A DNA stretch of 35,160 nt from IMG/VR virus record IMGVR_UViG_2734482770_000003. One strand, 5' to 3'. The position numbers and the translations under genes are program-made. The notes under the pieces were generated by a model. It was not told where the DNA came from, searched no databases, and saw only the letters and a program-made list of their open reading frames with translations. The stretch comes from a virus (Duplodnaviria; Heunggongvirae; Uroviricota; Caudoviricetes). How positions within the stretch are numbered: the first letter of the stretch is position 1; every line of letters starts with the position of its first letter. Shown here piece after piece: positions 6,280 through 26,922 of the stretch.

Positions 6280-6394
6280 TAGCTATTGTGACTATGCTAA
6301 CCCTATGAATCTATTGTGTGATTATGAGTAATGACTTTTTCTAATATTTGATTTTTAATGTAGTAACTTAGCTAATTTTAAAATTTGTAAAAGG

Positions 6395-7648
6395 ATGTTT
6401 ATGTCGATTTATCAAGGTGGTAACAAGTTAAATGAGGATGATTTTCGTTCTCACGTTTATTCCTTGTGTCAATTAGATAATGTTGGCGTTCTGTTAGGTG
6501 CTGGTGCTTCTGTCGGTTGTGGTGGGAAAACGATGAAAGATGTATGGAAATCGTTTAAGCAAAACTACCCTGAGCTTTTGGGAGCACTTATTGATAAATA
6601 TCTTCTGGTTTCGCAAATTGATTCTGATAACAATTTGGTCAATGTTGAACTTTTGATAGATGAAGCAACTAAATTTCTTTCTGTAGCTAAAACTAGACGA
6701 TGTGAAGATGAAGAGGAGGAATTCAGGAAGATATTAAGTTCATTATATAAAGAGGTTACGAAGGCTGCATTATTAACAGGAGAACAGTTTAGAGAGAAAA
6801 ATCAGGGTAAAAAAGATGCGTTTAAATATCACAAAGAGTTAATTTCAAAATTAATTTCAAATAGACAGCCCGGTCAGTCGGCTCCGGCAATTTTTACAAC
6901 AAATTATGATTTGGCCTTAGAGTGGGCTGCAGAAGATTTAGGAATACAGTTGTTTAATGGTTTTTCTGGGCTACATACACGGCAGTTTTATCCCCAGAAT
7001 TTTGATTTGGCTTTCAGAAATGTAAATGCGAAGGGCGAAGCAAGATTCGGACATTATCATGCGTATCTCTATAAATTACATGGCTCACTTACGTGGTATC
7101 AAAATGATAGCTTGACTGTTAACGAAGTTAGTGCATCTCAAGCATATGATGAATATATTAATGACATAATCAATAAAGATGACTTTTATCGCGGTCAACA
7201 TTTGATTTATCCAGGGGCGAATAAATATAGCCATACAATCGGCTTCGTTTATGGAGAGATGTTTAGACGTTTTGGGGAGTTTATTTCGAAACCTCAAACA
7301 GCGTTGTTCATAAATGGGTTTGGTTTCGGTGATTATCATATAAATAGAATAATATTAGGCGCGTTACTGAATCCATCTTTCCATGTTGTTATATATTATC
7401 CTGAATTGAAAGAAGCAATTACCAAAGTAAGTAAGGGTGGCGGTTCGGAAGCTGAGAAAGCTATTGTTACTTTAAAAAATATGGCTTTCAATCAAGTAAC
7501 TGTAGTTGGGGGAGGAAGCAAGGCATATTTTAATAGTTTCGTAGAACATCTACCATACCCTGTGCTCTTTCCACGAGATAATATTGTTGATGAGTTGGTT
7601 GAAGCAATTGCTAATCTTTCTAAAGGAGAAGGTAATGTCCCTTTTTAA
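6395..7648 (+). CDS. SIR2-like (sirtuin-fold) NADase-type defence protein
   Basis: Gly-rich NAD-binding-like LLGAGASVGCGG near N-terminus, TTNYD motif, catalytic-His-like KLHGS; AT-rich cargo at P2 tin/old position; alternative start at 6401. Confidence 0.8.
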   Translation: MFMSIYQGGNKLNEDDFRSHVYSLCQLDNVGVLLGAGASVGCGGKTMKDVWKSFKQNYPELLGALIDKYLLVSQIDSDNNLVNVELLIDEATKFLSVAKTRRCEDEEEEFRKILSSLYKEVTKAALLTGEQFREKNQGKKDAFKYHKELISKLISNRQPGQSAPAIFTTNYDLALEWAAEDLGIQLFNGFSGLHTRQFYPQNFDLAFRNVNAKGEARFGHYHAYLYKLHGSLTWYQNDSLTVNEVSASQAYDEYINDIINKDDFYRGQHLIYPGANKYSHTIGFVYGEMFRRFGEFISKPQTALFINGFGFGDYHINRIILGALLNPSFHVVIYYPELKEAITKVSKGGGSEAEKAIVTLKNMAFNQVTVVGGGSKAYFNSFVEHLPYPVLFPRDNIVDELVEAIANLSKGEGNVPF

Positions 7649-9467
7649 ACTTACTGAAATCTCGGCTATTGGATACGTTGTAGGATTAGAAGGGGAAAGA
7701 ATTAGGATAAACCTGCATGAGGGGTTGCAAGGCAGATTAGCATCGCATAGAAAGGGGGTGAGCTCAGTAACGCAACCAGGAGATCTTATTGGGTTCGATG
7801 CAGGTAATATATTAGTTGTCGCAAGAGTGACAGATATGGCATTTGTTGAAGCGGATAAAGCGCATAAGGCAAATGTAGGCACATCTGATTTAGCTGATAT
7901 ACCTTTAAGACAAATTATCGCCTATGCAATTGGCTTTGTGAAAAGGGAGTTAAATGGTTATGTTTTTATATCAGAAGATTGGCGCTTACCTGCATTGGGT
8001 TCTTCTGCTGTTCCTTTGACTTCAGATTTTTTGAACATCATTTATAGTATTGATAAAGAAGAACTCCCAAAAGCGGTTGAATTAGGTGTGGATTCTCGAA
8101 CTAAAACCGTTAAGATATTTGCAAGTGTTGATAAATTATTGTCGCGACACTTAGCCGTTCTTGGTAGTACAGGATATGGTAAATCAAATTTCAATGCTTT
8201 GTTAACGAGGAAGGTTTCTGAAAAATACCCTAACTCAAGAATAGTTATTTTTGACATAAATGGTGAATACGCGCAAGCTTTTACAGGTATTCCAAATGTA
8301 AAGCACACTATTCTAGGGGAATCCCCAAATGTTGATAGTTTGGAAAAAAATCAGCAAAAGGGTGAGCTATATAGTGAAGAGTATTATTGTTATAAAAAGA
8401 TACCATATCAGGCATTAGGTTTTGCTGGGTTAATTAAATTATTAAGACCAAGTGATAAAACACAATTGCCCGCATTAAGAAATGCATTAAGTGCAATTAA
8501 TCGGACTCATTTTAAAAGCCGTAATATTTACTTGGAAAAAGATGATGGTGAAACTTTTCTTTTGTATGATGATTGTCGTGACACAAATCAAAGTAAATTG
8601 GCTGAGTGGTTGGATTTATTAAGGCGTAGACGTCTTAAAAGAACGAATGTATGGCCGCCGTTTAAAAGTTTAGCGACTTTGGTTGCTGAATTTGGATGTG
8701 TAGCTGCTGACCGTTCTAATGGAAGTAAACGTGACGCGTTTGGTTTTAGTAACGTGTTGCCATTGGTAAAAATCATACAACAACTTGCAGAGGATATAAG
8801 ATTTAAATCTATTGTTAATTTAAATGGAGGGGGTGAGCTAGCAGATGGTGGAACGCATTGGGATAAAGCTATGAGTGATGAAGTTGATTACTTCTTTGGT
8901 AAGGAAAAAGGACAAGAAAATGATTGGAATGTTCATATAGTTAATATGAAAAATTTGGCGCAAGATCATGCTCCAATGTTACTTAGTGCATTGTTGGAGA
9001 TGTTTGCTGAGATACTATTTAGACGTGGGCAGGAACGTTCGTATCCTACGGTACTTTTGTTGGAAGAAGCGCATCATTACCTGCGTGACCCTTATGCTGA
9101 AATTGACTCACAGATTAAAGCATATGAACGACTTGCTAAAGAAGGTAGGAAATTCAAATGCTCTTTAATTGTCAGTACTCAGCGACCCTCAGAGCTTTCT
9201 CCTACTGTTTTGGCAATGTGTTCAAACTGGTTTTCGTTACGTTTGACTAATGAAAGAGATTTACAGGCTCTCAGATATGCAATGGAAAGCGGTAATGAAC
9301 AAATCTTAAAACAAATATCAGGTTTACCAAGAGGTGATGCTGTTGCATTTGGTTCTGCATTTAATTTGCCTGTAAGAATTTCAATTAATCAAGCAAGGCC
9401 AGGGCCAAAATCTTCAGATGCTGTTTTTTCTGAAGAATGGGCTAATTGTACAGAATTACGTTGTTAA
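7635..9467 (+). CDS. HerA-like (FtsK/HerA superfamily) ATPase, partner of SIR2 protein
   Basis: Walker A VLGSTGYGKS, Walker B-like VLLLEEAHHY; ATG at 7635 preceded by aaaggagaagg; 14-nt overlap with upstream SIR2 stop. Confidence 0.8.
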   Translation: MSLFKLTEISAIGYVVGLEGERIRINLHEGLQGRLASHRKGVSSVTQPGDLIGFDAGNILVVARVTDMAFVEADKAHKANVGTSDLADIPLRQIIAYAIGFVKRELNGYVFISEDWRLPALGSSAVPLTSDFLNIIYSIDKEELPKAVELGVDSRTKTVKIFASVDKLLSRHLAVLGSTGYGKSNFNALLTRKVSEKYPNSRIVIFDINGEYAQAFTGIPNVKHTILGESPNVDSLEKNQQKGELYSEEYYCYKKIPYQALGFAGLIKLLRPSDKTQLPALRNALSAINRTHFKSRNIYLEKDDGETFLLYDDCRDTNQSKLAEWLDLLRRRRLKRTNVWPPFKSLATLVAEFGCVAADRSNGSKRDAFGFSNVLPLVKIIQQLAEDIRFKSIVNLNGGGELADGGTHWDKAMSDEVDYFFGKEKGQENDWNVHIVNMKNLAQDHAPMLLSALLEMFAEILFRRGQERSYPTVLLLEEAHHYLRDPYAEIDSQIKAYERLAKEGRKFKCSLIVSTQRPSELSPTVLAMCSNWFSLRLTNERDLQALRYAMESGNEQILKQISGLPRGDAVAFGSAFNLPVRISINQARPGPKSSDAVFSEEWANCTELRC

Positions 9468-9624
9468 TTACCTGATGTACATGGCTAGTGCAAGTTGGTA
9501 GCGCATGTCTATATGCATTTATTTGCATGTGTTTTATTGAGTGAGCGCACAAGCTTGATGACCCGACAGGTATGTATTTAGACTGAATTTACACCTGCAT
9601 TAAAACCGCCCCACGAAGCGGGCG

Positions 9625-9643
9625 GGCGAGGCGGGGAAAGCAC
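9625..9643. other. cos site: 19-nt cohesive-end sequence ggcgaggcggggaaagcac
   Basis: Matches the P2 cohesive end as I recall it; located between the tin/old-position cargo and Q as in P2; flanked by GC-rich inverted repeat 9606..9625. Confidence 0.75.
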
Positions 9644-9779
9644 TGCGCGCTGGCGGTGGTGCTGATTTTATTTTTTTAGCGTCTCAGCGCGTCGTGATGG
9701 CGTTTAGATTGTGCGCCGGGGCGTTAGTGTGTCTGCGGGGTGTTTTGTGCGGTGGTGAGCGTGTGAGGGCGTGATGACG

Positions 9780-9806
9780 GGGTGTAAAAAAGCCGCCCGC
9801 AGGCGG
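9780..9806 (-). terminator. Rho-independent terminator downstream of Q (minus strand)
   Basis: Hairpin gccgcc-tgcg-ggcggc followed by T-run on the minus strand immediately after Q stop. Confidence 0.5.
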
Positions 9807-9812
9807 CGATGT

Positions 9813-10847
9813 TCAGCCGTTGTCAGTGTCCAGTGAGTAGTTTTTAAAGCGGATGACCTCCTGACCGAGCCAGCCGTTTATCTCACGGATCCTGTCCTGT
9901 AACGGGATAAGCTCATTGCGGACAAAGACCTTTGCCACTTTCTCAATATCACCCAGCGACCCGACGTTCTCCGGCTTGCCGCCCATCAACTGAAAGGGGA
10001 TGCGGTGCGCGTCAAGCAGGTCAGCGGCGCTGGCTTTTTTGATATTAAAAAAATCGTCCTTCGTTGCCACTTCACTGAGCGGGATAATTTTAATGCCGTC
10101 GGCTTTCCCCTGCGGGGCATAGAGAAACAGATTTTTAAAGTTGTTGCGGCCTTTCGACTTCACCATGTTTTCGCGAAGCATTTCGATATCGTTGCGATCC
10201 TGCACGGCATCGGTGACGTACATGATGTATCCGGCATGTGCGCCGTTTTCGTAATACTTGCGGCGGAACAGCGTGGCCGACTCATTCAGCCAGGCAGAGT
10301 TAAGGGCGCTGAGATATTCCGGCAGGCCGTACAACTCCTGATTAATATCCGGCTCCAGCAGGTGAAACACGGAGCCGGGCGCGAAGGCTGTCGGCTCGTT
10401 GAAGGACGGCACCCACCAGTAAACATCCTCTTCCACACCACGGCGGGTATATTTTGCCGGTGAGGTTTCCAGTCTGATGACCTTACCGGTGGTGCTGTAA
10501 CGCTTTTCCAGAAACGCATTACCGAACACCAGAAAATCCAGCACAAAGCGGCTGAAATCCTGCTGGGAAAGCCACGGGTGCGGGATAAACGTTGAAGCCA
10601 GAATATTACGTTTGACGTAAATCGGTGAGCTGTGATGCACGGCAGCACGCAGGCTTTTTGCCAGACCGGTAAAGCTGACCGGTGGCTCATACCATCTGCC
10701 GTTACTGATGCATTCGACGTAATCCAGAATGTCACGGCGGTCGAGTACCGGCACTGGCTCACCAAAGGTGAATGCCTCCATTTTCGGGGCGCTGGCGGTC
10801 ATTTTTTTTGCCGCAGGTTGCTGTGTTTTCCCTTTTTTCTTGCTCAT
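9813..10847 (-). CDS. Q: Portal protein gpQ
   Basis: 344 aa (same as P2 Q); start ATG overlaps P stop; first gene after cos on opposite strand. Confidence 0.9.
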   Translation of the reverse strand: MSKKKGKTQQPAAKKMTASAPKMEAFTFGEPVPVLDRRDILDYVECISNGRWYEPPVSFTGLAKSLRAAVHHSSPIYVKRNILASTFIPHPWLSQQDFSRFVLDFLVFGNAFLEKRYSTTGKVIRLETSPAKYTRRGVEEDVYWWVPSFNEPTAFAPGSVFHLLEPDINQELYGLPEYLSALNSAWLNESATLFRRKYYENGAHAGYIMYVTDAVQDRNDIEMLRENMVKSKGRNNFKNLFLYAPQGKADGIKIIPLSEVATKDDFFNIKKASAADLLDAHRIPFQLMGGKPENVGSLGDIEKVAKVFVRNELIPLQDRIREINGWLGQEVIRFKNYSLDTDNG

Positions 10848-12619
10848 CAGTAAAACTCCAGAATGGTGGATGTCAGCGGGGTGCTGATACCGGCGGTGAG
10901 TGGCTCATTTAACAGGGCGTGCATGGTCGCCCAGGCGAGGTCGGCGTGGCTGGCTTCCTCGCTGCGGCTGGCCTCATACGTGGCGCTGCGTCCGCTGCTG
11001 GTCATGGTCTTGCGGATAGCCATAAACGAGCTGGTGATGTCGGTGGCGCTGACGTCATATTCCAGACAGCCACGGCGGATAACGTCTTTTGCCTTGAGCA
11101 CCATTGCGGTTTTCATTTCCGGCGTGTAGCGGATATCGCGCGCGGCGGGATAGAACGAGCGCACGAGCTGGAACACGCCGACACCGAGGCCGGTGGCATC
11201 AATCCCGATGTATTCAACGTTATATTTTTCGGTGAGTTTGCGGATGGATTCCGCCTGAGTGGCAAAGTCCATGCCTTTCCACTGGTGACGCTCAAGTATT
11301 CTGAATTTGCCACCGGCCACCACCGGCGGTGCCAGCACCACGCATCCGGCGCTGTCGCCACGGTGTGACGGGTCGTAACCAATCCATACCGGGCGGGAGC
11401 CGAACGGATTGGCGGCAAACGGCGCATAGTCTTCCCATTCTTCCAGCGTGTCGACCATGCAGCGTTGCAGCTCCTCGAACGGGAACACCGACGCCTTGTC
11501 GTCAACAAATTCACACATGAACAGGTTTTTAAAATCGTCGGCGCTGTTTTCGCGTTTGAGCTGCTCAATGTCGAACAGCGTGCAGCCGCCTTTCAGGGCG
11601 TCCTCAATGGTGACAATCTGTCGCCACTGGCCGTCCGCACAGAGAAGCCCACCGGCAAGGGCGTTATGACTGACGTCGATTTCCACGCGTTCGGCGGCGC
11701 TGGCGCGTCCCCGGTTGAACAGTTCACCGGACCAGAACGGGTAGGCGTCGTGCGCCAGCGTGGACGGGGTGGAGAAATAGGTCGAGCGCAGGTGACTCTG
11801 TGAGGCCATACCCGATGCCACCTTACGCAGTACCTGAAAATTCGGGATCCAGAAAATCTCGTCGACGTACAGGTCGCCGTTATGGCTCTGTGCGGTGTTG
11901 GAGTTGGTGCCGAGAAAAATCAGTTTTGCGCCGTTATTTCCCAGGACAATCGGGTCACCGGTCAGGTCAACGTCAACCAGACGGGCAAAGGCGATGATAT
12001 ATTCACGGAACACATACGCCTGCGTTTTACTGGCCGACAGAAAAATCTGGTTATGGCCGGTTTTCAGGGCGCGCAGCAGCGCCTCGCGGGAAAAATAAAA
12101 CGTTGCGCCAATCTGGCGGGATTTCAGGATATCGCGGATGCGGTGCTCAAGCCCGGCGCGATACCAGTGCAACTGATAGTCGAAAGACTGCTCAAAGAAA
12201 ATCTGCTCCAGCTTTTCGATGGCCTCGTCACTGAAAAAATTCTTTTTCGGTTTGCGCCGCCCGCCTTTGTTGCGGTTAGCGACGTTCGGATTAAGGTCTG
12301 CCTCGTTGCCGGTCTGGCTGTAGCGGTTGACCCGTGCCAGTCGTTCAATCTGGCGTCCCAGCAGGTCAATTTCCTTGAAGTCACCGCCGGTTTTCTGCGG
12401 TTTGATGATGAGCTGGGTCAGCCGCGCTTCCAGGCTCATTTCGACACGGCTGATGGGGGCAACACTGTCCCAGCCGTCGCGCTGTTTCCAGCTCTGCACC
12501 GTCGGGCGTTTCATCTGCAACATGGCGGCAATCTGCGGCACGGAAAATCCCTGCCAGTACAGCAGCGCCGCCTGACGACGCGGGTCGTGTAAAAGAGTGG
12601 TGTCTGTGGTGATGGTCAT
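10847..12619 (-). CDS. P: Terminase large subunit (ATPase) gpP
   Basis: 590 aa from ATG at 12619 (P2 P is 590 aa) with gaggt SD; track ORF extends to 12649. Confidence 0.9.
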   Translation of the reverse strand: MTITTDTTLLHDPRRQAALLYWQGFSVPQIAAMLQMKRPTVQSWKQRDGWDSVAPISRVEMSLEARLTQLIIKPQKTGGDFKEIDLLGRQIERLARVNRYSQTGNEADLNPNVANRNKGGRRKPKKNFFSDEAIEKLEQIFFEQSFDYQLHWYRAGLEHRIRDILKSRQIGATFYFSREALLRALKTGHNQIFLSASKTQAYVFREYIIAFARLVDVDLTGDPIVLGNNGAKLIFLGTNSNTAQSHNGDLYVDEIFWIPNFQVLRKVASGMASQSHLRSTYFSTPSTLAHDAYPFWSGELFNRGRASAAERVEIDVSHNALAGGLLCADGQWRQIVTIEDALKGGCTLFDIEQLKRENSADDFKNLFMCEFVDDKASVFPFEELQRCMVDTLEEWEDYAPFAANPFGSRPVWIGYDPSHRGDSAGCVVLAPPVVAGGKFRILERHQWKGMDFATQAESIRKLTEKYNVEYIGIDATGLGVGVFQLVRSFYPAARDIRYTPEMKTAMVLKAKDVIRRGCLEYDVSATDITSSFMAIRKTMTSSGRSATYEASRSEEASHADLAWATMHALLNEPLTAGISTPLTSTILEFY

Positions 12620-12792
12620 GAATACCTCGCCGTGATGAATACACGGCAAGGCTACTGAGTCGCGCCCCGCGATTCGCTAAGGTGCTGTTGTGTCAGTGAT
12701 AAGCCATCCGGGACTGATGGCGGAGGATGCGCATCGTCGGGAAACTGATGCCGACATGTGACTCCTCTAATCACTATTCAGGACTCCTGACA

Positions 12793-13647
12793 ATGGCAAA
12801 AAAAGTCTCAAAATTCTTTCGTATCGGCGTTGAGGGTGACACCTGTGACGGGCGTGTCATCAGTGCGCAGGATATTCAGGAAATGGCCGAAACCTTTGAC
12901 CCGCGAGTCTATGGTTGCCGCATTAACCTGGAACATCTGCGCGGCATCCTGCCTGACGGTATTTTTAAGCGTTATGGCGATGTGGCCGAACTGAAGGCCG
13001 AAAAGATTGACGATGATTCGGCGCTGAAAGGCAAATGGGCGCTGTTTGCGAAAATCACCCCGACCGATGACCTTATCGCGATGAACAAGGCCGCGCAGAA
13101 GGTCTATACCTCAATGGAAATTCAGCCGAACTTTGCCAATACCGGCAAATGTTATCTGGTGGGGCTGGCCGTCACCGATGACCCGGCAAGCCTCGGCACG
13201 GAATACCTGGAATTCTGCCGCACGGCAAAACACAACCCCCTGAACCGCTTCAAATTAAGCCCTGAAAACCTGATTTCAGTGGCAACGCCCGTTGAGCTGG
13301 AATTTGAAGACCTGCCTGAAACCGTGTTCACAGCCCTGACCGAAAAGGTGAAGTCCATTTTTGGCCGCAAACAGGCCAGCGATGATGCCCGTCTGAATGA
13401 CGTGCATGAAGCGGTGACCGCTGTTGCTGAACATGTGCAGGAAAAACTGAGCGCCACTGAGCAGCGCCTCGCGGAGATGGAAACCGCCTTTTCCGCACTT
13501 AAGCAGGAGGTGACTGACAGGGCGGATGAAACCAGCCAGGCATTCACCCGCCTGAAAAACAGTCTCGACCACACCGAAAGTCTGACCCAGCAGCGCCGCA
13601 GCAAAGCCACCGGCGGTGGCGGTGACGCCCTGATGACGAACTGCTGA
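12793..13647 (+). CDS. O: Capsid scaffolding protein gpO
   Basis: 284 aa from ATG at 12793 (P2 O is 284 aa); divergent from P; coiled-coil-like C-terminal half. Confidence 0.85.
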   Translation: MAKKVSKFFRIGVEGDTCDGRVISAQDIQEMAETFDPRVYGCRINLEHLRGILPDGIFKRYGDVAELKAEKIDDDSALKGKWALFAKITPTDDLIAMNKAAQKVYTSMEIQPNFANTGKCYLVGLAVTDDPASLGTEYLEFCRTAKHNPLNRFKLSPENLISVATPVELEFEDLPETVFTALTEKVKSIFGRKQASDDARLNDVHEAVTAVAEHVQEKLSATEQRLAEMETAFSALKQEVTDRADETSQAFTRLKNSLDHTESLTQQRRSKATGGGGDALMTNC

Positions 13648-13705
13648 CCGGCGTCAGTCAGTCCGGGAAAACCTTCACGATTAACCCTTAATTTCAGGAA
13701 AAACT

Positions 13706-14779
13706 ATGCGCCAGGAAACCCGCTTTAAATTTAATGCCTACCTGTCCCGTGTTGCCGAACTGAACGGCATCGACGCCGGTGATGTGTCGAAAAAATTCAC
13801 CGTTGAACCGTCGGTCACCCAGACCCTGATGAACACCATGCAGGAGTCCTCTGACTTTCTGACCCGCATCAACATTGTGCCGGTCAGCGAAATGAAAGGG
13901 GAAAAAATTGGTATTGGTGTCACCGGCTCCATCGCCAGCACCACCGACACCGCCGGTGGCACCGAGCGTCAGCCGAAGGACTTCTCGAAGCTGGCGTCAA
14001 ACAAGTACGAATGCGACCAGATTAACTTCGATTTTTATATCCGCTACAAAACGCTGGACCTGTGGGCGCGTTATCAGGATTTCCAGCTCCGTGTCCGTAA
14101 CGCCATTATCAAACGCCAGTCCCTTGATTTAATCATGGCCGGTTTTAACGGCGTGAGGCGTGCCGAAACCTCTGACCGTAGCAGTAACCAGATGCTGCAG
14201 GATGTGGCGGTCGGCTGGCTGCAGAAATACCGCAATGAAGCCCCGGCGCGCGTGATGAGCAAGGTCACTGACGAGGAAGGCCGCACCACCTCTGAGGTTA
14301 TCCGCGTGGGTAAGGGCGGTGATTATGCCAGCCTTGATGCACTGGTGATGGATGCGACCAACAACCTGATTGAGCCGTGGTATCAGGAAGACCCTGACCT
14401 TGTGGTGATTGTGGGACGTCAGCTACTGGCGGACAAATATTTCCCCATCGTCAACAAGGAGCAGGACAACAGCGAAATGCTGGCCGCTGACGTCATCATC
14501 AGCCAGAAACGCATCGGTAATCTGCCCGCGGTACGCGTCCCGTACTTCCCGGCGGATGCGATGCTCATCACGAAGCTGGAAAACCTGTCCATCTACTACA
14601 TGGATGACAGCCATCGCCGCGTGATTGAGGAAAACCCGAAACTCGACCGCGTGGAGAACTACGAGTCAATGAACATTGATTACGTGGTGGAAGACTACGC
14701 CGCCGGTTGTCTGGTGGAAAAAATTAAGGTCGGTGATTTCTCCACACCGGCTAAGGCGACCGCAGAGCCGGGAGCGTAA
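13706..14779 (+). CDS. N: Major capsid protein gpN
   Basis: 357 aa (same as P2 N); follows O. Confidence 0.9.
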   Translation: MRQETRFKFNAYLSRVAELNGIDAGDVSKKFTVEPSVTQTLMNTMQESSDFLTRINIVPVSEMKGEKIGIGVTGSIASTTDTAGGTERQPKDFSKLASNKYECDQINFDFYIRYKTLDLWARYQDFQLRVRNAIIKRQSLDLIMAGFNGVRRAETSDRSSNQMLQDVAVGWLQKYRNEAPARVMSKVTDEEGRTTSEVIRVGKGGDYASLDALVMDATNNLIEPWYQEDPDLVVIVGRQLLADKYFPIVNKEQDNSEMLAADVIISQKRIGNLPAVRVPYFPADAMLITKLENLSIYYMDDSHRRVIEENPKLDRVENYESMNIDYVVEDYAAGCLVEKIKVGDFSTPAKATAEPGA

Positions 14780-14782
14780 CCG

Positions 14783-15520: not shown

Positions 15521-15619
15521 CAACCGAATGCGCCCCGCGCCAGGGCGGCACGCCGGTCAGTGAGGGTGAATCACCTGACACTGCACCGGCGTCCACCGCC
15601 CGACTTTTCAGAGGTAGTC

Positions 15620-17967: not shown

Positions 17968-18112
17968 CCCGCAGACGAACGGCGATTTAAGTGCCGATAT
18001 CCGGCAGCTTGAGAACGCGCTGGCACGTTGTGCCAGCCAGGTAAAAATGATTAAACACTGTCAGGACGAAAACGATGCTCAAACCCGACAGCCTGCGCAG
18101 GGCACTGACTGA
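17822..18112 (+). CDS. lysC: Spanin outer-membrane lipoprotein LysC (Rz1-like), embedded out of frame in lysB
   Basis: 96 aa; signal peptide with lipobox LCAGC; Pro-rich; starts inside lysB in another frame and extends into R. Confidence 0.7.
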   Translation: MKTKIFAAGTALACLMLCAGCTSVRPAPTPVIVPNVCPKVSLCPMPGSDPQTNGDLSADIRQLENALARCASQVKMIKHCQDENDAQTRQPAQGTD

Positions 18113-18542
18113 TGCCGTCACGGTGCTGAAAACCAGCCCCGAGATGCTGCGGATATTCGTTGATAACGGGAGTATTGCCTCCACACTGGCGACGTCGCTG
18201 TCATTCGAAAAGCGTTACACGCTCAATGTGATTGTGACCGACTTTACCGGTGATTTTGACCTGCTCATCGTGCCGGTGCTGGCGTGGCTGCGGGAAAATC
18301 AGCCCGACATCATGACCACTGACGAAGGCCAGAAAAAGGGCTTCACGTTTTATGCAGACATCAACAATGACAGCAGCTTTGATATCAGCATCAGCCTGAT
18401 GCTGACCGAGCGCACGCTGGTCAGTGAGGTGGACGGCGCACTGCATGTGAAGAATATCCCGGAACCTCCGCCGCCGGAGCCGGTCACCCGCCCGATGGAG
18501 CTTTATATCAATGGCGAACTGGTGAGCAAGTGGGATGAATGA
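18075..18542 (+). CDS. R: Tail completion protein gpR
   Basis: 155 aa (same as P2 R). Confidence 0.8.
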   Translation: MLKPDSLRRALTDAVTVLKTSPEMLRIFVDNGSIASTLATSLSFEKRYTLNVIVTDFTGDFDLLIVPVLAWLRENQPDIMTTDEGQKKGFTFYADINNDSSFDISISLMLTERTLVSEVDGALHVKNIPEPPPPEPVTRPMELYINGELVSKWDE

Positions 18543-18987
18543 GTTTAAGCGTTTTGAAGACCGGCTGACCGGGCTGATTGAATCACTGTCACCATCAGGG
18601 CGTCGGCGACTGAGCACCGAACTGGCGAAACATCTGCGGCAGAGTCAGCAGCGCCGGGTGATGGCACAGAAAGCCCCGGACGGCACACCCTACGCACCAC
18701 GCCAGCAGCAGAGCGCCAGAAAAAAGACCGGTCGTGTTAAGCGAAAAATGTTTGCGAAACTTATCACCAGTCGTTTTTTGCATATCCGCGCCAGCCCGGA
18801 ACAGGCATCAATGGAATTTTACGGCGGGAAGTCACCGAAAATCGCCAGCGTGCATCAGTTTGGTCTGTCGGAAGAAACCCGGAAAGACGGTAAGAAAATT
18901 GATTATCCGGCGCGTCCTCTGCTCGGCTTTACCGGTGAGGATGTGCAGATGATTGAAGAGATTATCCTGGCTCACCTTGAGCGTTAG
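18535..18987 (+). CDS. S: Tail completion protein gpS
   Basis: 150 aa (same as P2 S). Confidence 0.8.
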   Translation: MNEFKRFEDRLTGLIESLSPSGRRRLSTELAKHLRQSQQRRVMAQKAPDGTPYAPRQQQSARKKTGRVKRKMFAKLITSRFLHIRASPEQASMEFYGGKSPKIASVHQFGLSEETRKDGKKIDYPARPLLGFTGEDVQMIEEIILAHLER

Positions 18988-19017
18988 TTTTATCCAGGCA
19001 GAGGCTGATGCGCAATT

Positions 19018-19052
19018 AAACATTGAGCGGCCATGCTGGTCGCTCAATGTTT
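19018..19052. terminator. Perfect 12-bp-stem hairpin between convergent S and cargo gene (bidirectional terminator candidate)
   Basis: aaacattgagcg / loop gccatgctggt / cgctcaatgttt. Confidence 0.45.
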
Positions 19053-19058
19053 AGAGGT

Positions 19059-19844
19059 TTATGAGTGATTTTTATTTGATGCTTTGTATTCTACAACCTT
19101 CTTATTGGCGTAAAGGAATTTTGTATATGACAGGAATATAACCAGACCTGAAATGAAATAGATGAGGGATATTATTAATAATGCTTTTTTTTGGCTGTTA
19201 TTATCTTTAATCTCCTGACTTAACCATTCCGAGTCCTCCTCGTTTAGCTGTAAGAGCTTATTGCAGGCGATCTCAGGAAGTGTGTCTTTTATAAATACGT
19301 TTCGTAGCCTCTTGCAATCGGCAAGGCTATAAGTTTTATTGAATTCAACTGTTTTATTGTTGAAGGATAAAAGAACTTTGTCACTATAAACATAGTACAT
19401 CATATTTTTATATGGTATGCCTATGGCATCTCTTACTATAGCGGATTGTTTGTTGTGTATATAACATGCGAAGAGAATATAAATAATGCTGGACAGAATT
19501 ACAATTATTGTTTTAATTATGTGTGGTGGTTTTGTTATGTCACCCCAGAAGCGAGTAAGAAAAAAATACGATGTTTTTAGTTTTCCATCAATCAGCCCCT
19601 GCTGTATCATTCTCACATCTTCGATGCCTGATACATTGATTCCGTTAATTATTTTAAATAGTTGAATGTCGCGCCATTTTTTGTCGAGCATTTTTAACTT
19701 TCTGTCTGAATACTCAAAATTGAAATAATGTGCAATAAACCTCATAAGATTACTTTTACCAAAGGTAATAAATGTTAATACTATTAATAAAAATAGATAC
19801 AAAGAGATAAACCACCACGCATTAGTCACATTATCACTGAACAT
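19059..19844 (-). CDS. Unrecognised cargo protein with three predicted transmembrane segments (P2 orf30 position)
   Basis: 261 aa; ATG with gaggag SD; hydrophobic stretches near residues 9-28, 108-128, 221-241; strongly AT-rich, opposite strand to flanking late genes. Confidence 0.6.
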   Translation of the reverse strand: MFSDNVTNAWWFISLYLFLLIVLTFITFGKSNLMRFIAHYFNFEYSDRKLKMLDKKWRDIQLFKIINGINVSGIEDVRMIQQGLIDGKLKTSYFFLTRFWGDITKPPHIIKTIIVILSSIIYILFACYIHNKQSAIVRDAIGIPYKNMMYYVYSDKVLLSFNNKTVEFNKTYSLADCKRLRNVFIKDTLPEIACNKLLQLNEEDSEWLSQEIKDNNSQKKALLIISLIYFISGLVIFLSYTKFLYANKKVVEYKASNKNHS

Positions 19845-19927
19845 TACGCTCTCCTCGAATGTTGTATGGTCGTTCTACAAATGAATCCAGATAGCATAAC
19901 TTTTATATATTGTGCAATCTCACACGC

Positions 19928-20563
19928 ATGAACACTCTCGCAAATATTCAGGAACTCGCGCGCGCACTGCGCAACATGATTCGTACCGGCCTTGTCGTCG
20001 AAACCAACCTTAAAGCCGGTCGCTGCCGTGTGCAGACCGGTGGCATGTGCACCGACTGGCTTCTGTGGCTGACCCATCGTGCCGGACGTTCGCGCACATG
20101 GTGGGCACCTTCCGTGGGGGAACAGGTGCTGATTCTGGCTGTGGGCGGTGAACTCGACACGGCGTTCGTTCTGCCGGGGATTTATTCCGGCGATAACCCC
20201 GCGCCGTCTGCGTCGGCGGATGCCCTGCATATCCGTTTCCCTGACGGGGCGGTGATTGAGTATGAACCCGAAACCAGTGCACTCACGGCAAGCGGAATTA
20301 AAACGGCCAGCGTGACGGCTTCTGATTCTGTTACTGCCACGGTGCCGGTGGTCATGGTGAAAGCATCAACCCGCGTCACCCTGGACACACCGGAGGTGGT
20401 CTGCACCAACAGGCTGATTACCGGCACGCTGGAAGTGCAGAAGGGCGGGACGATGCGCGGCAACATTGAACACACCGGCGGTGAACTCTCATCAAACGGT
20501 AAGGTACTGCATACCCATAAACACCCCGGCGACAGCGGCGGCACAACCGGGAGTCCTCTATGA
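19928..20563 (+). CDS. V: Baseplate spike/assembly protein gpV
   Basis: 211 aa from ATG at 19928 (P2 V is 211 aa); track ORF starts at a TTG at 19910. Confidence 0.85.
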   Translation: MNTLANIQELARALRNMIRTGLVVETNLKAGRCRVQTGGMCTDWLLWLTHRAGRSRTWWAPSVGEQVLILAVGGELDTAFVLPGIYSGDNPAPSASADALHIRFPDGAVIEYEPETSALTASGIKTASVTASDSVTATVPVVMVKASTRVTLDTPEVVCTNRLITGTLEVQKGGTMRGNIEHTGGELSSNGKVLHTHKHPGDSGGTTGSPL

Positions 20564-20907
20564 CAGCGCGTTATCTCGGAATGAATCGCAGTGATGGCCT
20601 GACTGTCACTGACCTTGAGCATATCAGCCAGGGTATCGGCGATATCCTGCGCACACCGGTCGGCTCACGGGTGATGCGTCGTGATTACGGCTCGTTGCTG
20701 GCGTCAATGATTGACCAGCCGCAGACCCCGGCGCTTGAGTTGCAGATTAAGGTCGCCTGTTACATGGCGGTGCTGAAATGGGAACCCCGCGTCACCCTGT
20801 CATCCGTCACCACGGCGCGCAGTTTTGACGGGCGAATGACGGTCACGTTAACCGGCCAGCACAACGACACCGGCCAGCCACTTTCGTTAACCATCCCTGT
20901 GAGTTGA
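20560..20907 (+). CDS. W: Baseplate wedge protein gpW
   Basis: 115 aa (same as P2 W); overlaps V stop. Confidence 0.85.
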   Translation: MTARYLGMNRSDGLTVTDLEHISQGIGDILRTPVGSRVMRRDYGSLLASMIDQPQTPALELQIKVACYMAVLKWEPRVTLSSVTTARSFDGRMTVTLTGQHNDTGQPLSLTIPVS

Positions 20908-20911
20908 AACC

Positions 20912-21820
20912 ATGCCGATTATCGACCTGAACCAGCTACCCGCACCGGATGTGGTCGAGGAGCTGGATTTTGAAACCATTCTTGCCGAACGCAAGGCGAC
21001 ACTGATTTCCCTTTACCCGGAAGACCAGCAGGAGGCGGTCGCCCGTACCCTGACGCTGGAATCCGAGCCTCTCGTCAAATTGCTGGAGGAAAATGCTTAT
21101 CGTGAGCTTATCTGGCGTCAGCGTGTGAATGAGGCCGCACGGGCGGTAATGCTGGCCTGTGCCGCCGGTAATGACCTTGATGTGATTGGTGCCAATTACA
21201 ACACCACGCGCCTGATTATCACCCCGGCAGATGATTCGACCCTCCCGCCGACACCGGCAGTGATGGAATCTGACACCGATTATCGTCTGCGTATTCAGCA
21301 GGCGTTTGAAGGTTTAAGCGTCGCCGGGTCGGTGGGAGCCTATCAGTATCATGGTCGCAGTGCCGACGGGCGTGTCGCGGATATCTCTGTCACCAGTCCG
21401 TCTCCTGCCTGCGTCACCATCTCTGTGCTGTCACGTGAAAATAACGGTGTGGCATCTGAAGACCTGCTGGCTGTGGTGCGCAACGCCCTGAATGGCGAGG
21501 ACGTCAGACCGGTGGCCGACCGTGTGACCGTGCAGTCTGCCGCCATCGTTGAATACCAGATAAATGCCACGCTTTACCTTTACCCTGGCCCCGAAAGCGA
21601 ACCCATTCGCGCTGCCGCCGTGAAAAAACTGGAAGCGTATATCACGGCACAGCACCGGCTGGGGCGCGACATCCGACTGTCTGCCATTTATGCCGCTTTG
21701 CATGTGGAAGGCGTGCAGCGTGTCGAACTGGCTTCACCGCTGGCCGACATCGTGCTCAACAGTACGCAGGCGTCTTTCTGTACCGAATACAGCGTCGTGA
21801 CCGGAGGCTCGGATGAGTGA
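20912..21820 (+). CDS. J: Baseplate protein gpJ
   Basis: 302 aa (same as P2 J). Confidence 0.85.
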   Translation: MPIIDLNQLPAPDVVEELDFETILAERKATLISLYPEDQQEAVARTLTLESEPLVKLLEENAYRELIWRQRVNEAARAVMLACAAGNDLDVIGANYNTTRLIITPADDSTLPPTPAVMESDTDYRLRIQQAFEGLSVAGSVGAYQYHGRSADGRVADISVTSPSPACVTISVLSRENNGVASEDLLAVVRNALNGEDVRPVADRVTVQSAAIVEYQINATLYLYPGPESEPIRAAAVKKLEAYITAQHRLGRDIRLSAIYAALHVEGVQRVELASPLADIVLNSTQASFCTEYSVVTGGSDE

Positions 21821-22343
21821 TTCGCGACTGCTGCCGACCGGCTCATCACCGCTTGAAGTCGCCGCCGCAAAAGCCTGTGCGGAAATTGAAAAAACGCCGG
21901 TCAGTATTCGTGAGCTGTGGAACCCGGATACCTGTCCGGCAAATCTGCTGCCGTGGCTGGCGTGGGCGTTTTCGGTCGACAGGTGGGATGAAAAGTGGCC
22001 GGAAGCGACAAAACGCGCCGTTATCCGCGATGCCTATTTCATCCACTGTCATAAAGGCACTATAGGTGCAATCCGGCGTGTGGTGGAGCCGCTGGGCTAT
22101 CTCATCAACGTGACGGAGTGGTGGGAAACCAGTGACCCGCCCGGCACCTTCCGGCTTGATATTGGTGTACTGGAAAGCGGTATCACAGAGGCAATGTATC
22201 AGGAAATGGAACGGCTGATTGCTGATGCCAAACCTGCAAGCCGCCACCTTATTGGCCTGAACATTACCCGGGACATTCCCGGCTACCTGTTCGCCGGTGG
22301 TGTGGCTTACGACGGCGATGTAATTACGGTTTACCCCGGATAA
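21813..22343 (+). CDS. I: Baseplate/tail protein gpI
   Basis: 176 aa (same as P2 I). Confidence 0.85.
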   Translation: MSDSRLLPTGSSPLEVAAAKACAEIEKTPVSIRELWNPDTCPANLLPWLAWAFSVDRWDEKWPEATKRAVIRDAYFIHCHKGTIGAIRRVVEPLGYLINVTEWWETSDPPGTFRLDIGVLESGITEAMYQEMERLIADAKPASRHLIGLNITRDIPGYLFAGGVAYDGDVITVYPG

Positions 22344-22353
22344 GTGAGGAATA

Positions 22354-24672
22354 ATGAGCACAAAATTCAGAACCGTTATCACCACTGCCGGTGCAGCAAA
22401 GCTGGCAGCGGCAACCGCGCCGGGAGGGCGGAAGGTCAACATTACCACGATGGCCGTCGGGGATGGCGGTGGTAAATTACTTGTCCCGGATGCCGGACAG
22501 ACCGGGCTTATCCATGAAGTCTGGCGACATGCGCTGAACAAAATCAGCCAGGACAAACGAAACAGTAATTATATTATCGCAGAGCTGGTTATTCCGCCGG
22601 AGGTGGGCGGTTTCTGGATGCGTGAGCTTGGCCTGTACGATGATGCGGGAACGTTAATTGCCGTGGCGAACATGGCCGAAAGTTATAAGCCAGCTCTTGC
22701 CGAAGGCTCAGGGCGTTCGCAGACCTGTCGCATGGTCATCATCGTCAGCAGTGTGGCCTCGGTGGAGCTGACCATTGACACCGCAACGGTGATGGCGACA
22801 CAGGATTACGTTGATGACAAAATTGCAGAGCACGAACAGTCACGACGTCACCCGGACGCCTCGCTGACCGCAAAAGGTTTTACTCAGTTAAGCAGTGCGA
22901 CCAACAGCACGTCTGAAACACTGGCCGCAACGCCGAAAGCGGTAAAGGCCGCCTATGACCTTGCTAACGGGAAATATACCGCACAGGACGCTACCACAGC
23001 GCGAAAAGGTCTTGTCCAGCTCAGTAGTGCCACCAACAGCACGTCTGAAACGCTCGCCGCAACACCAAAAGCGGTAAAGGCCGCGTATGACCTTGCTAAC
23101 GGGAAATACACTGCACAGGACGCCACCACAACGCGAAAAGGTCTTGTCCAGCTCAGTAGCGTCACCAACAGCGATTCTGAAACGCTTGCGGCAACGCCAA
23201 AGGCGGTAAAGGCCGCGTATGACCTTGCTAACGGGAAATACACTGCACAGGATGCCACTACAGCGCGAAAAGGTCTTGTCCAGCTCAGTAGCGCCACCAA
23301 CAGTGATTCTGAAACGCTGGCCGCAACATCAAAAGCGGTGAAGTCTGCCTATGACAATGCTGAAAAACGTCTTCAGAAAGATCAGAACGGTGCGGATATT
23401 CCGGGAAAGGATACCTTCACGAAAAATATCGGTGCCTGTCGTGCTTATAGCGGCGCTTTGAGCACTGAAGCCGGAAACTGGACAACCGCTCAGTTTATTG
23501 AATGGCTGGATTCCCGTGGTGCATTTAATCATCCGTACTGGATGTGCAAAGGCTCATGGTCATATGCAAATAACAAAATCATTACGGATACCGGATGTGG
23601 TGATATCCACCTGGCTGGTTGTGTCGTCGAGGTCATGGGAACTAAATCTGCAATCACTATCCGAGTGACCACGCCGACAACATCAAGTGGTGGCGGTACA
23701 ACCAGCGCGCAATTCACTTACATTAATCATGGGGACGGCTACTCCCCCGGCTGGCGTCGTGACTGGAATCGTCAGGGCGACTCAATGACCGGAACGATTA
23801 ATCAGGATGGCGGAAGCCAGAATGCCTATATGTCTACGGCCTTATGTTCAGGCACCAGAGGCGGCAAAAAATATCTCAGAAAGTTTCGTGGTGGAGAAGG
23901 AGACACTATCTGGCATGAAACAGTACAGGGCGGGGTAATTCGCTGGGCGACAGGAAACTATGACGCTCAGGAAGAATTATCACTCAGCTCCGCTTATGGT
24001 CTCCGTTCAAGAGGTGAGATTACATCACTCAGTGCTAATGGTCTGCGCATTGCTTATGGCAATTATGGATTCTTTATCAGGAATGATGGCAGCAGCACTT
24101 ATTTTATGTTGACTAAATCAGGTGACAGATTAGGTACTTATAATAATTTAAGACCACTGATTATAAATGATGCCACGGGTGCTGTATCAATGGGGCATGG
24201 CCTGAGTGTTACTGGTGATATTGTCTCAAGTACCAAAGTACGTGCCGGTAGCGGGAAAAAGTTCACGGTCAGCAGCAGCAATACATCCACGAAGGAAGCC
24301 GCATTCAATTTGTGGGGAAACTCAAGTCGTCCTGTGGTGGCTGAATTAGGTGATGATGCAGGCTGGCATTTTTACAGTCAGAGAAATACAGATAACAGCA
24401 TCACTTTTGCTGTTAACGGGCAGGTATCACCATCTAACTATAGTAATTTTGATTCACGCTATGTCCGGGATATCCGGCTTGGTGGTGCTGCCACATACAA
24501 ACCTGCGAACAATGGCATGACATGGACACATCAGGCACCGTCCGGGTGTGTATATTCCGGCATTATTGTTCAGGATACCGGCTCAAACTCTGCCGATAAC
24601 ATTGGTGGCATATATTACAGACCGGTGCAGAAATACATTAACGGGACATGGTATAACGTAGCGCAGGTATAA
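22354..24672 (+). CDS. H: Tail fibre protein gpH (with internal tandem repeats)
   Basis: 772 aa; N-terminus typical of P2-like H; contains about 3.6 tandem 44-aa repeats; variable C-terminal receptor-binding part. Confidence 0.85.
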   Translation: MSTKFRTVITTAGAAKLAAATAPGGRKVNITTMAVGDGGGKLLVPDAGQTGLIHEVWRHALNKISQDKRNSNYIIAELVIPPEVGGFWMRELGLYDDAGTLIAVANMAESYKPALAEGSGRSQTCRMVIIVSSVASVELTIDTATVMATQDYVDDKIAEHEQSRRHPDASLTAKGFTQLSSATNSTSETLAATPKAVKAAYDLANGKYTAQDATTARKGLVQLSSATNSTSETLAATPKAVKAAYDLANGKYTAQDATTTRKGLVQLSSVTNSDSETLAATPKAVKAAYDLANGKYTAQDATTARKGLVQLSSATNSDSETLAATSKAVKSAYDNAEKRLQKDQNGADIPGKDTFTKNIGACRAYSGALSTEAGNWTTAQFIEWLDSRGAFNHPYWMCKGSWSYANNKIITDTGCGDIHLAGCVVEVMGTKSAITIRVTTPTTSSGGGTTSAQFTYINHGDGYSPGWRRDWNRQGDSMTGTINQDGGSQNAYMSTALCSGTRGGKKYLRKFRGGEGDTIWHETVQGGVIRWATGNYDAQEELSLSSAYGLRSRGEITSLSANGLRIAYGNYGFFIRNDGSSTYFMLTKSGDRLGTYNNLRPLIINDATGAVSMGHGLSVTGDIVSSTKVRAGSGKKFTVSSSNTSTKEAAFNLWGNSSRPVVAELGDDAGWHFYSQRNTDNSITFAVNGQVSPSNYSNFDSRYVRDIRLGGAATYKPANNGMTWTHQAPSGCVYSGIIVQDTGSNSADNIGGIYYRPVQKYINGTWYNVAQV
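22868..23350 (+). repeat. Tandem 132-bp coding repeats (about 3.6 copies) inside tail fibre gene H
   Basis: Unit boundaries recur at 23000, 23132, 23264; encoded unit LSSATNSTSETLAATPKAVKAAYDLANGKYTAQDATTARKGLVQ. Confidence 0.85.
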
Positions 24673-24675
24673 TTT

Positions 24676-25203
24676 ATGCAGCATTTGATAAATATAACGG
24701 CGGGTAATCCAAAAACAGTTGAACAATATCAATTGACAAAGAACTTTGATGTTGTCTGGTTTTTTACAGAAGATGGTAAGAACTGGTACGAAGAACAAAA
24801 GTATTTTGCTGATGACACGATAAAAATAGCGTACGACAAAGATAATATCATCCGCTATGTGGAAAAGGATGTGACAGCTATCAGACCGGATGGATTAAGT
24901 GTGGTTGAAGTGGCGGATATTACTGCTAACCGACGGGCGGACATTTCAGGGAACTGGATGTTTAAGGACGGCAAAGTGATTAAACGCATTTATACGGCAG
25001 ATGAATTGCGGCGGCAGGCAGAAATTCGGAAAGTCAGACTTCTTGCAGATGCTGAATCCGTGATTTTGCCGCTGGAGCGCGCTGTCAGGCTGAACATGGC
25101 AACAGATGAGGAGCGTAGCCGACTGGAAGCATGGGAGCGTTACAGCGTTCTGGTCAGTCGTGTGGATCCTGCAAATCCTGAATGGCCGGAAATGCCGCAA
25201 TAA
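24676..25203 (+). CDS. G: Tail fibre assembly chaperone gpG
   Basis: 175 aa (same as P2 G); directly downstream of H. Confidence 0.85.
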
Positions 25204-25567
25204 GTTGTATGAGTTCTGGTGTGAGCTTACACATCTATGGCACAGAGTAAAGCCTAATCTGACAGTTCGCTCTGTGCCAGAAACAGACGTCACTTATATA
25301 TTTCTGTATTAATCAATGAGGAAAGATTCAATTCTCTATAATGGAGGTTGCGTCCACTGTTTTCTCTAAGCAGACCAAGTTCCCTTAACGAAAAATTTAG
25401 TGTCAGAAACTAATATTGACAAAGAGGCAATGTTATATAGTATTAGTTTGATAACTAAAAATATAAGCCTGATTATCTCAAGCTTATATAGGTGATAAAG
25501 TTTCTAACTTAATTTGATTATAGAAGATACATTTCTTAATTATGACGCATTGATAATGGATTCAACT

Positions 25568-26593
25568 TCATTCAATAATGTCTGGTAGAACATTAAATCC
25601 AGTTGGTCGAAAAAAGGATAATCTTTGCTGATGAGAAACTAAATCTATCTTCACAATGTGATGATGGTTTTTTTTGATTTTTCTAGAGTACAATGAGTAA
25701 AAAAGATTTTCTGTGTTAATTTCCACAATGATTCCAGACATATCTAAGTCATAGCATTTTGCTAATGCTTTCAATTTTGGTGATATTTTGCTCTCTTTAA
25801 ACTTTTCATTATATTCCGGTTGAAAATATCTTATCAAAGCAGCTTCGATTATATTAATGGCTTGATTTTTGTTTGGGTGATTTTTTAATGCAAACTTAAA
25901 TCGCTTGTCATCGCTATCCGTATCATTAATTAATCCAGACCTCCCATCTAGAGATGAGAATACTTGTTCATGCTCAAAGGCATACATAAAAAGCATGATC
26001 TCTTGATCTGGCTTGTTATAAAGCGTTTGCGCCAATATTTTTTGTAATTTTGAATGACTCCTTAAACGTTCAACTGCATTCCTGCTACCATTTTTACCTA
26101 CGGCTTGTCCAATATAAAGAACTTCATATGAGGACAGATCTGAATAGTAACCTAATTTACTTGAATATAAGGTGGCAATGAAAGATGCAGAGATGTAAGT
26201 TACCTCCTCCCCTTCATTATTTATACTAATAACTTCTCTGAATGGATAGTTACATATTATATCAGTTGCATCGTCTTCTAATATCCAGTTGTGTTCAAAA
26301 TGGAACTTGCTTTCTTTACCATCTATTTTGTACCCTATCTCTCCTGAGAGAATGTTTTTCTCATGATTAATTGTATTATCAATAAAATAAAAGCTTGGGC
26401 GAGCGCATATAAAGTATATATGGCATTTTGAAAGTTGTTTTTCTTGTTCTAAATTAATTTTTGCATCAGACGTTAGTTGCTGAGCAGTAAGCATCGCTGT
26501 AAAACTATTTAAGTATCCAAAAGCAAATTCGTGTATGAATTTTCTTTTCACTCGAAATATCCTCACTAGAAATGAATAATATTGGTTTTTCAT
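25568..26593 (-). CDS. Unrecognised cargo protein at the Z/fun position (candidate defence/exclusion gene)
   Basis: 341 aa, no TM segments evident, AT-rich, opposite strand to tail genes, flanked by AT-rich non-coding DNA on both sides. Confidence 0.6.
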   Translation of the reverse strand: MKNQYYSFLVRIFRVKRKFIHEFAFGYLNSFTAMLTAQQLTSDAKINLEQEKQLSKCHIYFICARPSFYFIDNTINHEKNILSGEIGYKIDGKESKFHFEHNWILEDDATDIICNYPFREVISINNEGEEVTYISASFIATLYSSKLGYYSDLSSYEVLYIGQAVGKNGSRNAVERLRSHSKLQKILAQTLYNKPDQEIMLFMYAFEHEQVFSSLDGRSGLINDTDSDDKRFKFALKNHPNKNQAINIIEAALIRYFQPEYNEKFKESKISPKLKALAKCYDLDMSGIIVEINTENLFYSLYSRKIKKNHHHIVKIDLVSHQQRLSFFRPTGFNVLPDIIE

Positions 26594-26922
26594 GATAATA
26601 CTCTATTGATCCTAGACTTACCATTTAAAAAACGAACTGACATGCTCCCGTTGATTAATAAGCTGTAAGGTTAGCAATTCTTTTGGCGTTGAGAACAACT
26701 GCGAACTTCCGTTCCTTGCTCAAAGCAGACTGTCAGATTTGATAGCGTTTGGGCTATGTAAGTAGCCAGTTGGAGAATGAGTGAGTGCAAATCAGGACTG
26801 GCGGGCGAATTGCCCGCATTTTCTTTATCTGTTGTTTCATCCACTGACCAGCCTGGTCAAATAGCGTCTCATGCACTGCCCAACAGAAAATAGTTGCACC
26901 CATTAACCACGGAGTTAAACGG

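Follow-up and report, generated by a model that had tools for sequence, protein, structure and literature searches.

AT-rich islands of P2-like phages have been described as their three moron regions, and several papers treat the hotspots of P2-like prophages in which such cargo is found (PMC9122126, PMC9519451, PMC13586616, bioRxiv 10.1101/2024.10.15.618418, PMC6823313 and PMC3091744). Of the P2-like prophages with a complete defence system, 10% are reported to carry systems in several hotspots; the P2 gene fun, in the Z slot, blocks phage T5, and three validated defence systems (Vassallo 2022) map to the same fun hotspot; and the P2 hotspots also hold cargo other than defence genes, for example a CDT toxin and partition genes. 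Here we analyze a stretch of viral DNA of 35,160 nucleotides (IMG/VR record IMGVR_UViG_2734482770_000003; the whole stretch is called the window below), which holds a P2-like Escherichia coli prophage with cargo in all three regions: the tin/old (TO) slot between gpA and cos-gpQ, the orf30 slot between gpS and gpV, and the Z/fun slot between gpG and gpFI. We propose that the prophage carries three independent, swappable, horizontally acquired AT-rich cassettes, namely a SIR2-HerA system, P2's native orf30 and a candidate defence nuclease, a reading to which we assign a probability of roughly 75%.

Positions 478-33654 of the window are an intact-looking P2-like (Peduovirus) E. coli prophage. 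Its limits, the cargo junctions and the segment identities were obtained by blastn alignment to reference P2 (AF063097 / NC_001895), in which window 478-6151 aligns with P2 24356-30029 (98.2%), window 9625-23079 with P2 1-13459 (97.2%) and window 26704-33654 with P2 17429-24382 (96.3%), and gene G (window 24618-25288) is 77% identical to its P2 counterpart. The P2 gene order is kept (int-C-cox-B-A, cos, Q-P / O...S / V...G / FI...D-ogr), PGAP annotation concurs, and the combination of this gene order, the high identity and the P2 cos and attachment (att) cores identifies the element as a P2-like prophage. Both stretches of the window that were compared match E. coli O121 strain 201805972 at 100%, and the prophage is integrated between yegR and trhP/yegQ.

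The preliminary description drew attention to positions 6280-26922, where inserts in the tin/old, orf30 and Z/fun slots were said to be lower in GC than the backbone, the last two transcribed against the late operons. This interval runs from the base after the gpA stop codon to the base before the FI start, and it brackets three slots rather than delimiting a single feature. The observation itself is borne out: sliding-window analysis yields three GC troughs, at 6250-9500 (0.33-0.40), 19000-19900 (0.33-0.36) and 25250-26750 (0.30-0.34), against 0.52-0.60 for the backbone, and by segment counts the islands stand at 0.366, 0.338 and 0.317 compared with 0.538 for the backbone and 0.555 for the late genes alone. 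Length-matched backbone windows have a mean GC of 0.54-0.55, a standard deviation of 0.04-0.05 and a minimum of 0.42-0.45, which places the islands 4-5 standard deviations under the mean. Codon composition shows the same difference, with a third-position GC of 0.25-0.36 in the four cargo genes versus 0.57-0.72 in the late genes sampled, the exceptions being H (0.49) and G (0.44), where the receptor-binding module has been exchanged. The flanking genes in the P2 alignment show that the slots had been named correctly, and orf30 and the Z-slot gene are indeed minus-strand genes that run counter to the late operons O, V and F, with SIR2 and HerA on the plus strand. We conclude that the three islands are compositionally foreign and occupy known P2 accessory slots. 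Promoter-like sites in the islands are not enriched over shuffled sequence, and we claim no promoter. Reference P2 carries the same three AT-rich islands, with GC values of 0.365, 0.34 and 0.33 in the corresponding regions, and the state in which all slots are filled with AT-rich DNA is therefore not special to this prophage.

The TO slot contains two adjacent, co-oriented genes, the second of which (HerA) starts 14 nt before the end of the first (SIR2), and both match defence-specific models (Table 1). SIR2 scores 507 bits with the NCBIfam model SIR2_antiphage (cutoff 500), and HerA scores 710 with HerA_antiphage, under the cutoff of 800. Against the solved structures, SIR2 scores 946 bits over residues 1-415 (PDB 8J4U/8SU9 chain A) and HerA 1376 bits over all 610 residues (8J4U chain M). 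These full-length, near-identity scores and the operon-like gene overlap leave no detectable difference at the sequence level from the E. coli SIR2-HerA of PDB entries 8J4U, 8SU9, 8SUB, 8SUW, 8UAE and 8UAF and, as judged by sequence comparison, the TO cargo is this structurally solved system in its native genomic context. SIR2-HerA is present in the gpA-gpQ hotspot of 20 of 5426 complete E. coli genomes, and among 50,697 phage records not one covers the greater part of the SIR2-HerA stretch. In near-identical proteins, SIR2 and HerA form a large complex, and NAD+ is depleted on infection, which stops phage growth; nuclease and ATPase activities linked to HerA have also been reported. The TO cassette would be expected to act as a two-gene abortive-infection system that depletes NAD+ upon infection. 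Two other carriers of SIR2-HerA, CP053723 and CP142677, are truncated prophage remnants and are uninformative on the other slots.

The orf30-slot gene, which the preliminary description counted among the unknown foreign inserts, is P2's own orf30 and lies within an uninterrupted 13.5-kb P2 alignment at 97%. It is 91% identical to P2 orf30 at the nucleotide level and 85% at the amino-acid level, with equal length, position and orientation; its product matches phrog_2407 (2e-144), and homology, the position between S and V and the antisense orientation together place it in the P2 Orf30 family. The P2 record annotates the gene as nonessential. With carriage defined as at least 80% coverage of a query spanning the S-V junction, 459 of the 1576 E. 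coli genomes that match this query (~29%) have orf30, and in a spread sample of the genomes lacking it most show a gpS-gpV gap of 66 nt and a few hold another gene. In E. coli S10 (locus L016, 791-1834) the slot holds a different antisense hypothetical gene of 347 aa, which makes the S-V slot a minor hotspot where alternative cargo can sit and not a site of simple presence or absence of orf30. The Orf30 family is narrow: 5.8 billion proteins were searched and gave five clusters.

Three segments of Orf30 are strongly hydrophobic, and the charge distribution of the protein fits an N-out/C-in topology. The predicted layout comprises an outside N-terminus, a cytoplasmic loop of ~80 aa, a periplasmic loop of ~89 aa with two invariant cysteines, and an inside C-terminus. 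The AlphaFold2 model (predicted local distance difference test score, pLDDT, 76) gave no informative fold match, and neither sequence nor fold comparison showed homology to a characterised superinfection-exclusion protein. Our guess is that Orf30 is expressed from the prophage and has a role in the envelope or in superinfection exclusion; P2 orf30 as a membrane superinfection-exclusion gene is a secondary possibility. An open reading frame of 128 aa at 19844-20230(-), which overlaps gpV, was rejected as a GC-rich antisense artefact.

The gene in the Z/fun slot is read from a GTG codon at 26551, which is preceded by a GAGGA ribosome-binding site and agrees with the N-termini of homologues and with PGAP; an upstream ATG start at 26593, which would give 341 aa, was rejected on the same three grounds. 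Independent lines of evidence and a confident AlphaFold2 model (pLDDT 82, predicted template modelling score 0.83) point to a GIY-YIG nuclease core at residues ~140-250 that is similar to T4 endonuclease II (EndoII). The only PDB sequence matches of the family profile are the UvrC GIY-YIG domain and Eco29kI, both aligned at the catalytic Glu...Asn helix, and when the family profile was compared with T4 EndoII by hhalign, P was 9e-4 over 90 columns, with E236 of the family aligned with a Glu. Pfam hits below threshold were obtained to RE_Eco29kI from 14 of 45 members, the best at E 0.008, and to GIY_YIG_2 from 2-3 members. The EndoII glutamate we take to be E118, the residue mutated in PDB entry 2WSH, on the assumption that the 136-aa numbering starts 8 codons into the open reading frame. 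Among 47 members with a mean identity of 25%, the residues Y46, Y146, G148, R162, H166, E236 and N248 are invariant, and Y146, R162, E236 and N248 supply the conserved GIY-YIG catalytic set (Tyr of YIG, Arg, Glu, Asn).

The canonical GIY motif, which would be expected ~10-11 residues upstream of YIG, is absent, and its sole candidate, the invariant H44-I45-Y46, lies 100 residues upstream; HIY44-46 may supply the GIY element across an insert of ~100 residues. The Z-slot protein itself has no significant Pfam, NCBIfam or PADLOC match. None of the 47 divergent members reaches the curated Pfam GIY-YIG threshold or has a significant match in a PADLOC scan, and neither a PADLOC PD-T4-3 match above threshold nor close structural similarity to PD-T4-3 was seen. 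Likewise, hhalign against I-TevI showed no relationship (E 0.55), and a Foldseek search of the model against viral predicted structures (BFVD) returned nothing at E <= 0.001.

The family is widespread. A word-indexed search returned 139 homologues, and an exhaustive profile search 1316 cluster representatives at E <= 1e-3 (clusters at 50% identity), nearly all members being full-length proteins of 310-340 aa. A literature search by protein accessions and PHROG identifiers found nothing. The gene itself occurs in 6 of 5426 E. coli genomes, and the protein had no tblastn match in the 50,697 phage records, so that here the Z-slot and SIR2-HerA cargos are seen only in prophages. In Morganella morganii, a homologue with 89% identity (locus L010, 6001-6984) is the last gene after ogr in a P2-like prophage, at its extreme end and not between G and FI, from which we conclude that the same cassette sits in different slots of P2-like phages. 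Other homologues occupy a moron position of an unrelated prophage, the cargo region of an integrative and conjugative element (ICE) in Pseudomonas syringae, an integrase island in Paludibacterium, and an Acinetobacter island that also holds Cap15 and RelB. In a Serratia islet, the homologue (locus L004, 8001-8990) stands beside a divergently transcribed OLD-like AAA_15/AAA_21/DUF2813 ATPase of 595 aa (L004, 5845-7632); this two-gene pairing with an OLD/Gabija-like ATPase is absent from the other contexts examined. These contexts are mobile or defence-like, as would be expected of a single-gene moron that moves between elements.

A GIY-YIG-type core is also used by the Seg and I-Tev enzymes, and the Z-slot gene could in principle be a selfish free-standing homing endonuclease of the T4 seg type that inserted between G and FI with no benefit to the host. 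It is a single AT-rich intergenic gene between conserved phage genes and is present in several unrelated mobile elements, as such an endonuclease might be. We nevertheless regard this explanation as quite improbable, for the following reasons: (i) the limits of the insert coincide with generic Z-hotspot junctions, at which other cargos sit in >1,500 E. coli genomes (these genomes match only in the flanks, with ~18% coverage); (ii) the core is central and is not an N-terminal catalytic domain followed by a NUMOD or helix-turn-helix tail, in keeping with the empty comparison to I-TevI; (iii) the gene runs counter to the late operons, as a moron expressed in the lysogen would; and (iv) homologues are found in chromosomal islets and in an ICE, beside defence-type genes. 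The coincidence of the cargo limits with junctions used by other cargos further suggests that cassettes are exchanged through flanking homology, a process already reported for these hotspots, and we propose recombination at the conserved flanking phage genes as the probable route.

Natural recombinants indicate that the three cassettes assort independently. NCTC11129 combines SIR2-HerA with an orf30 slot that is empty and a Z slot that holds another cargo, of 433 aa; strain 05-3629 has tin/old in the TO slot together with orf30, the identical Z-slot gene and many identical late-gene products; and reference P2 has orf30 together with tin/old and fun. The suggestion in the preliminary description that the orf30-slot and Z-slot genes, both then unknown, function alongside SIR2-HerA is contradicted by the NCTC11129 and 05-3629 combinations. 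Cooperation of the three cargos as one defence unit, in which orf30 and the Z-slot gene serve SIR2-HerA as accessory or partner genes, would account for the presence of all three cargos within one prophage and for the occurrence of the Z-slot gene with SIR2-HerA in 2 genomes (CP119441 and CM149595), where about 0.06 would be expected at random from 6 and 20 carriers. However, these two prophages are one near-identical lineage at the same chromosomal site, and the co-occurrence is therefore one event, not two. SIR2 and HerA alone form the solved complex, and the genes belong to separate transcription units that are read from different strands and have 10-16 kb between them. In Serratia, Pseudomonas, Morganella, Acinetobacter and Paludibacterium, the 6-8 kb of flanking sequence inspected around the Z-slot homologues contains no SIR2-HerA. 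Taken together, these observations make a cooperating unit highly improbable. If active, the three cassettes would act as separate, additive layers rather than as one system.

A further alternative is that orf30, the Z-slot gene or both serve the phage cycle, through degradation of host DNA in lytic growth, or host fitness, through envelope physiology, in a manner unrelated to defence. T4 EndoII, the closest fold and profile match of the Z-slot protein, degrades host DNA for the phage; the P2 hotspots are described as also carrying non-defence cargo (the CDT toxin and partition genes); and Orf30 has no similarity to known defence proteins by PADLOC or fold search. On the other hand, both genes are dispensable, given the absence of orf30 from most P2-like prophages and the rarity of the Z-slot gene, and their orientation against the late operons makes a place in the lytic programme unlikely. 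Moreover, the Z hotspot is the site of P2 fun, which blocks T5, and of the three validated systems. On balance, we consider a role unrelated to defence unlikely.

The earlier suggestion that this prophage acts as a multi-system defence carrier is plausible and stands in part. SIR2-HerA is characterised and multi-hotspot carriage is known in the family, but a match to a known defence family is seen for a single cargo of the three. Besides the co-occurrence of the Z-slot and SIR2-HerA cargos, the following points weigh against our proposal of three independent cassettes with a candidate defence nuclease: neither the Z-slot protein nor Orf30 matches a PADLOC model; one homologue of the Z-slot gene sits among housekeeping genes; and gpA is truncated, so that the prophage may not be fully functional. 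Overall, the preliminary observation is confirmed and its interpretation is supported in part.

For the Z-slot gene we favour a stand-alone defence nuclease, because its distribution is that of a mobile single-gene moron and because its slot is a validated defence hotspot. We infer that the cassettes are expressed in the lysogen, and likewise infer any anti-phage activity of orf30 and the Z-slot gene. The Z-slot protein would be a soluble, stand-alone DNA endonuclease that is made in the lysogen and cuts incoming phage DNA. No methylase or immunity gene accompanies it, and it would therefore have to recognise modified or otherwise non-host DNA or be activated only upon infection. The family is absent from PADLOC-DB 2.0.0 and occurs as a one-gene cassette in prophages, an ICE and islands. 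We advance only tentatively, and with the odds somewhat against it, the broader idea that it is a large, unnamed family of stand-alone anti-phage nucleases with an unusual GIY-YIG domain, in which Y46 and the YIG element are split by a beta-rich insert of ~100 residues that possibly reads a DNA modification or another non-self cue.

Table 1. Coordinates of the cassettes, their genes and the landmarks of the prophage in the window.
Feature	Position	Strand	Size	Description
TO (tin/old) slot island	6152..9595		3444 bp	GC 0.366; replaces P2 30030-33545 (3' end of A, orf91, tin, old)
SIR2 NADase gene	6401..7648	+	415 aa	PADLOC SIR2 PDLC02186, 4e-190
HerA ATPase/helicase gene	7635..9467	+	610 aa	PADLOC HerA PDLC02185, 2e-277
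orf30 island	~18988..19927		940 bp	GC 0.338; between gpS (18535-18987) and gpV (19928-20563)
orf30	19059..19844	-	261 aa	P2's own non-essential gene; predicted three-transmembrane inner-membrane protein
Z/fun slot island	25289..26703		1415 bp	GC 0.317; replaces P2 15359-17428, holding fun(Z)
Z-slot gene	25568..26551	-	327 aa	GTG start at 26551; candidate endonuclease-II-like GIY-YIG core
Terminator-like hairpin 3' of Z-slot gene	25461..25489	-		12-bp stem followed by a T run; from a consensus scan only
Replication gene A (gpA)	4156..6279	+	707 aa	761 aa in P2; last ~43 codons (from 6152) from the cargo side
cos site	9625..9643		19 nt	GGCGAGGCGGGGAAAGCAC; aligns with P2 cosL 1-19 and cosR 33575-33593; identical to P2
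attL core, left prophage end	478..504		27 nt	AAAAAATAAGCCCGTGTAAGGGAGATT; aligns with P2 attP core 24356-24382
attR core, right prophage end	33628..33654		27 nt	Identical direct repeat of the attL core; P2 homology stops at P2 24382

The recombination junction of the TO slot lies inside gene A, where P2 homology stops at window 6151 (P2 30029). As a result, the last ~97 residues of P2 gpA are swapped for 43 unrelated ones, and PGAP annotates gene A as a pseudogene missing its C-terminus. The early/immunity region at 478-4155 (int, C, cox, B and small open reading frames) has an intermediate GC of 0.45, below the late genes and above the three islands.

Next to the Z slot, distal H and gene G (23080-25288) are strongly diverged from P2, with 73-77% identity or no match and a GC of 0.45-0.48; it follows that a receptor-binding module has been exchanged beside the slot. 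In the tail-fibre gene H, a 132-nt unit is repeated in tandem 3.5 times (90% matching) at window 22900-23355, through which the gene product reaches 772 aa compared with 669 aa in P2. At the other end of the slot, a GC-rich hairpin followed by a T run (26801-26817) separates the Z cargo from the late promoter region of FI; it is shared with P2 and unannotated in the P2 record, and it may insulate the Z slot from the F operon. Window 1-477 and 33655-35160 lie outside the prophage. Neighbouring prophages in 05-3629, CP66-6_Sichuan and FG92-1 occupy the same yegR-trhP/yegQ site, and two of these three are truncated remnants that retain SIR2-HerA.

In terms of architecture the window adds nothing new, as the three moron regions and the use of P2-like hotspots for defence are already documented; it is a further case in which cargo has been swapped while the backbone stayed nearly constant, and it places the E. 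coli SIR2-HerA known from structural studies in its native genomic setting. The one new lead is the Z-slot family, which is widespread and unannotated, has an EndoII-like GIY-YIG core as far as profiles and models indicate, and lies here in a validated defence hotspot. With one gene in 1.4 kb, presumed promoter region included, the cassette is a cheap candidate for testing, and if active, the family would add a single-gene system to the defence catalogues and annotate well over a thousand clusters now labelled hypothetical.

Among described proteins, the closest to the Z-slot product are T4 endonuclease II (DenA), the UvrC N-terminal domain, R.Eco29kI, I-TevI and PD-T4-3. The Z-slot protein differs from all of them in having 327 aa with additional beta-rich N- and C-terminal parts, and its sequence identity to them is 13-26%. 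The Seg and I-Tev homing enzymes combine an N-terminal GIY-YIG domain with a C-terminal DNA-binding module, an arrangement from which the Z-slot protein departs through the central position of its core.

The hotspots described by Rousset 2022, Vassallo 2022, Moura de Sousa 2026 and Egorov 2024 include the same gpA-gpQ and G-FI fun loci, with cargo swapped on near-identical backbones; the sections of these papers that were consulted mention neither orf30 nor the GIY-YIG-like family of the Z slot. The nearest relative of the prophage as a whole is phage P2, with which it shares the gene order, a backbone identity of 96-98%, the cos and att cores, three AT-rich islands with a GC of 0.33-0.37 at the same junctions, and orf30. 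It differs from P2 in that the TO slot carries plus-strand SIR2-HerA instead of orf91-tin-old, the Z slot has the 327-aa GIY-YIG-like gene where P2 has the 528-aa fun(Z), the C-terminus of gpA is replaced and shortened, and distal H and G are diverged.

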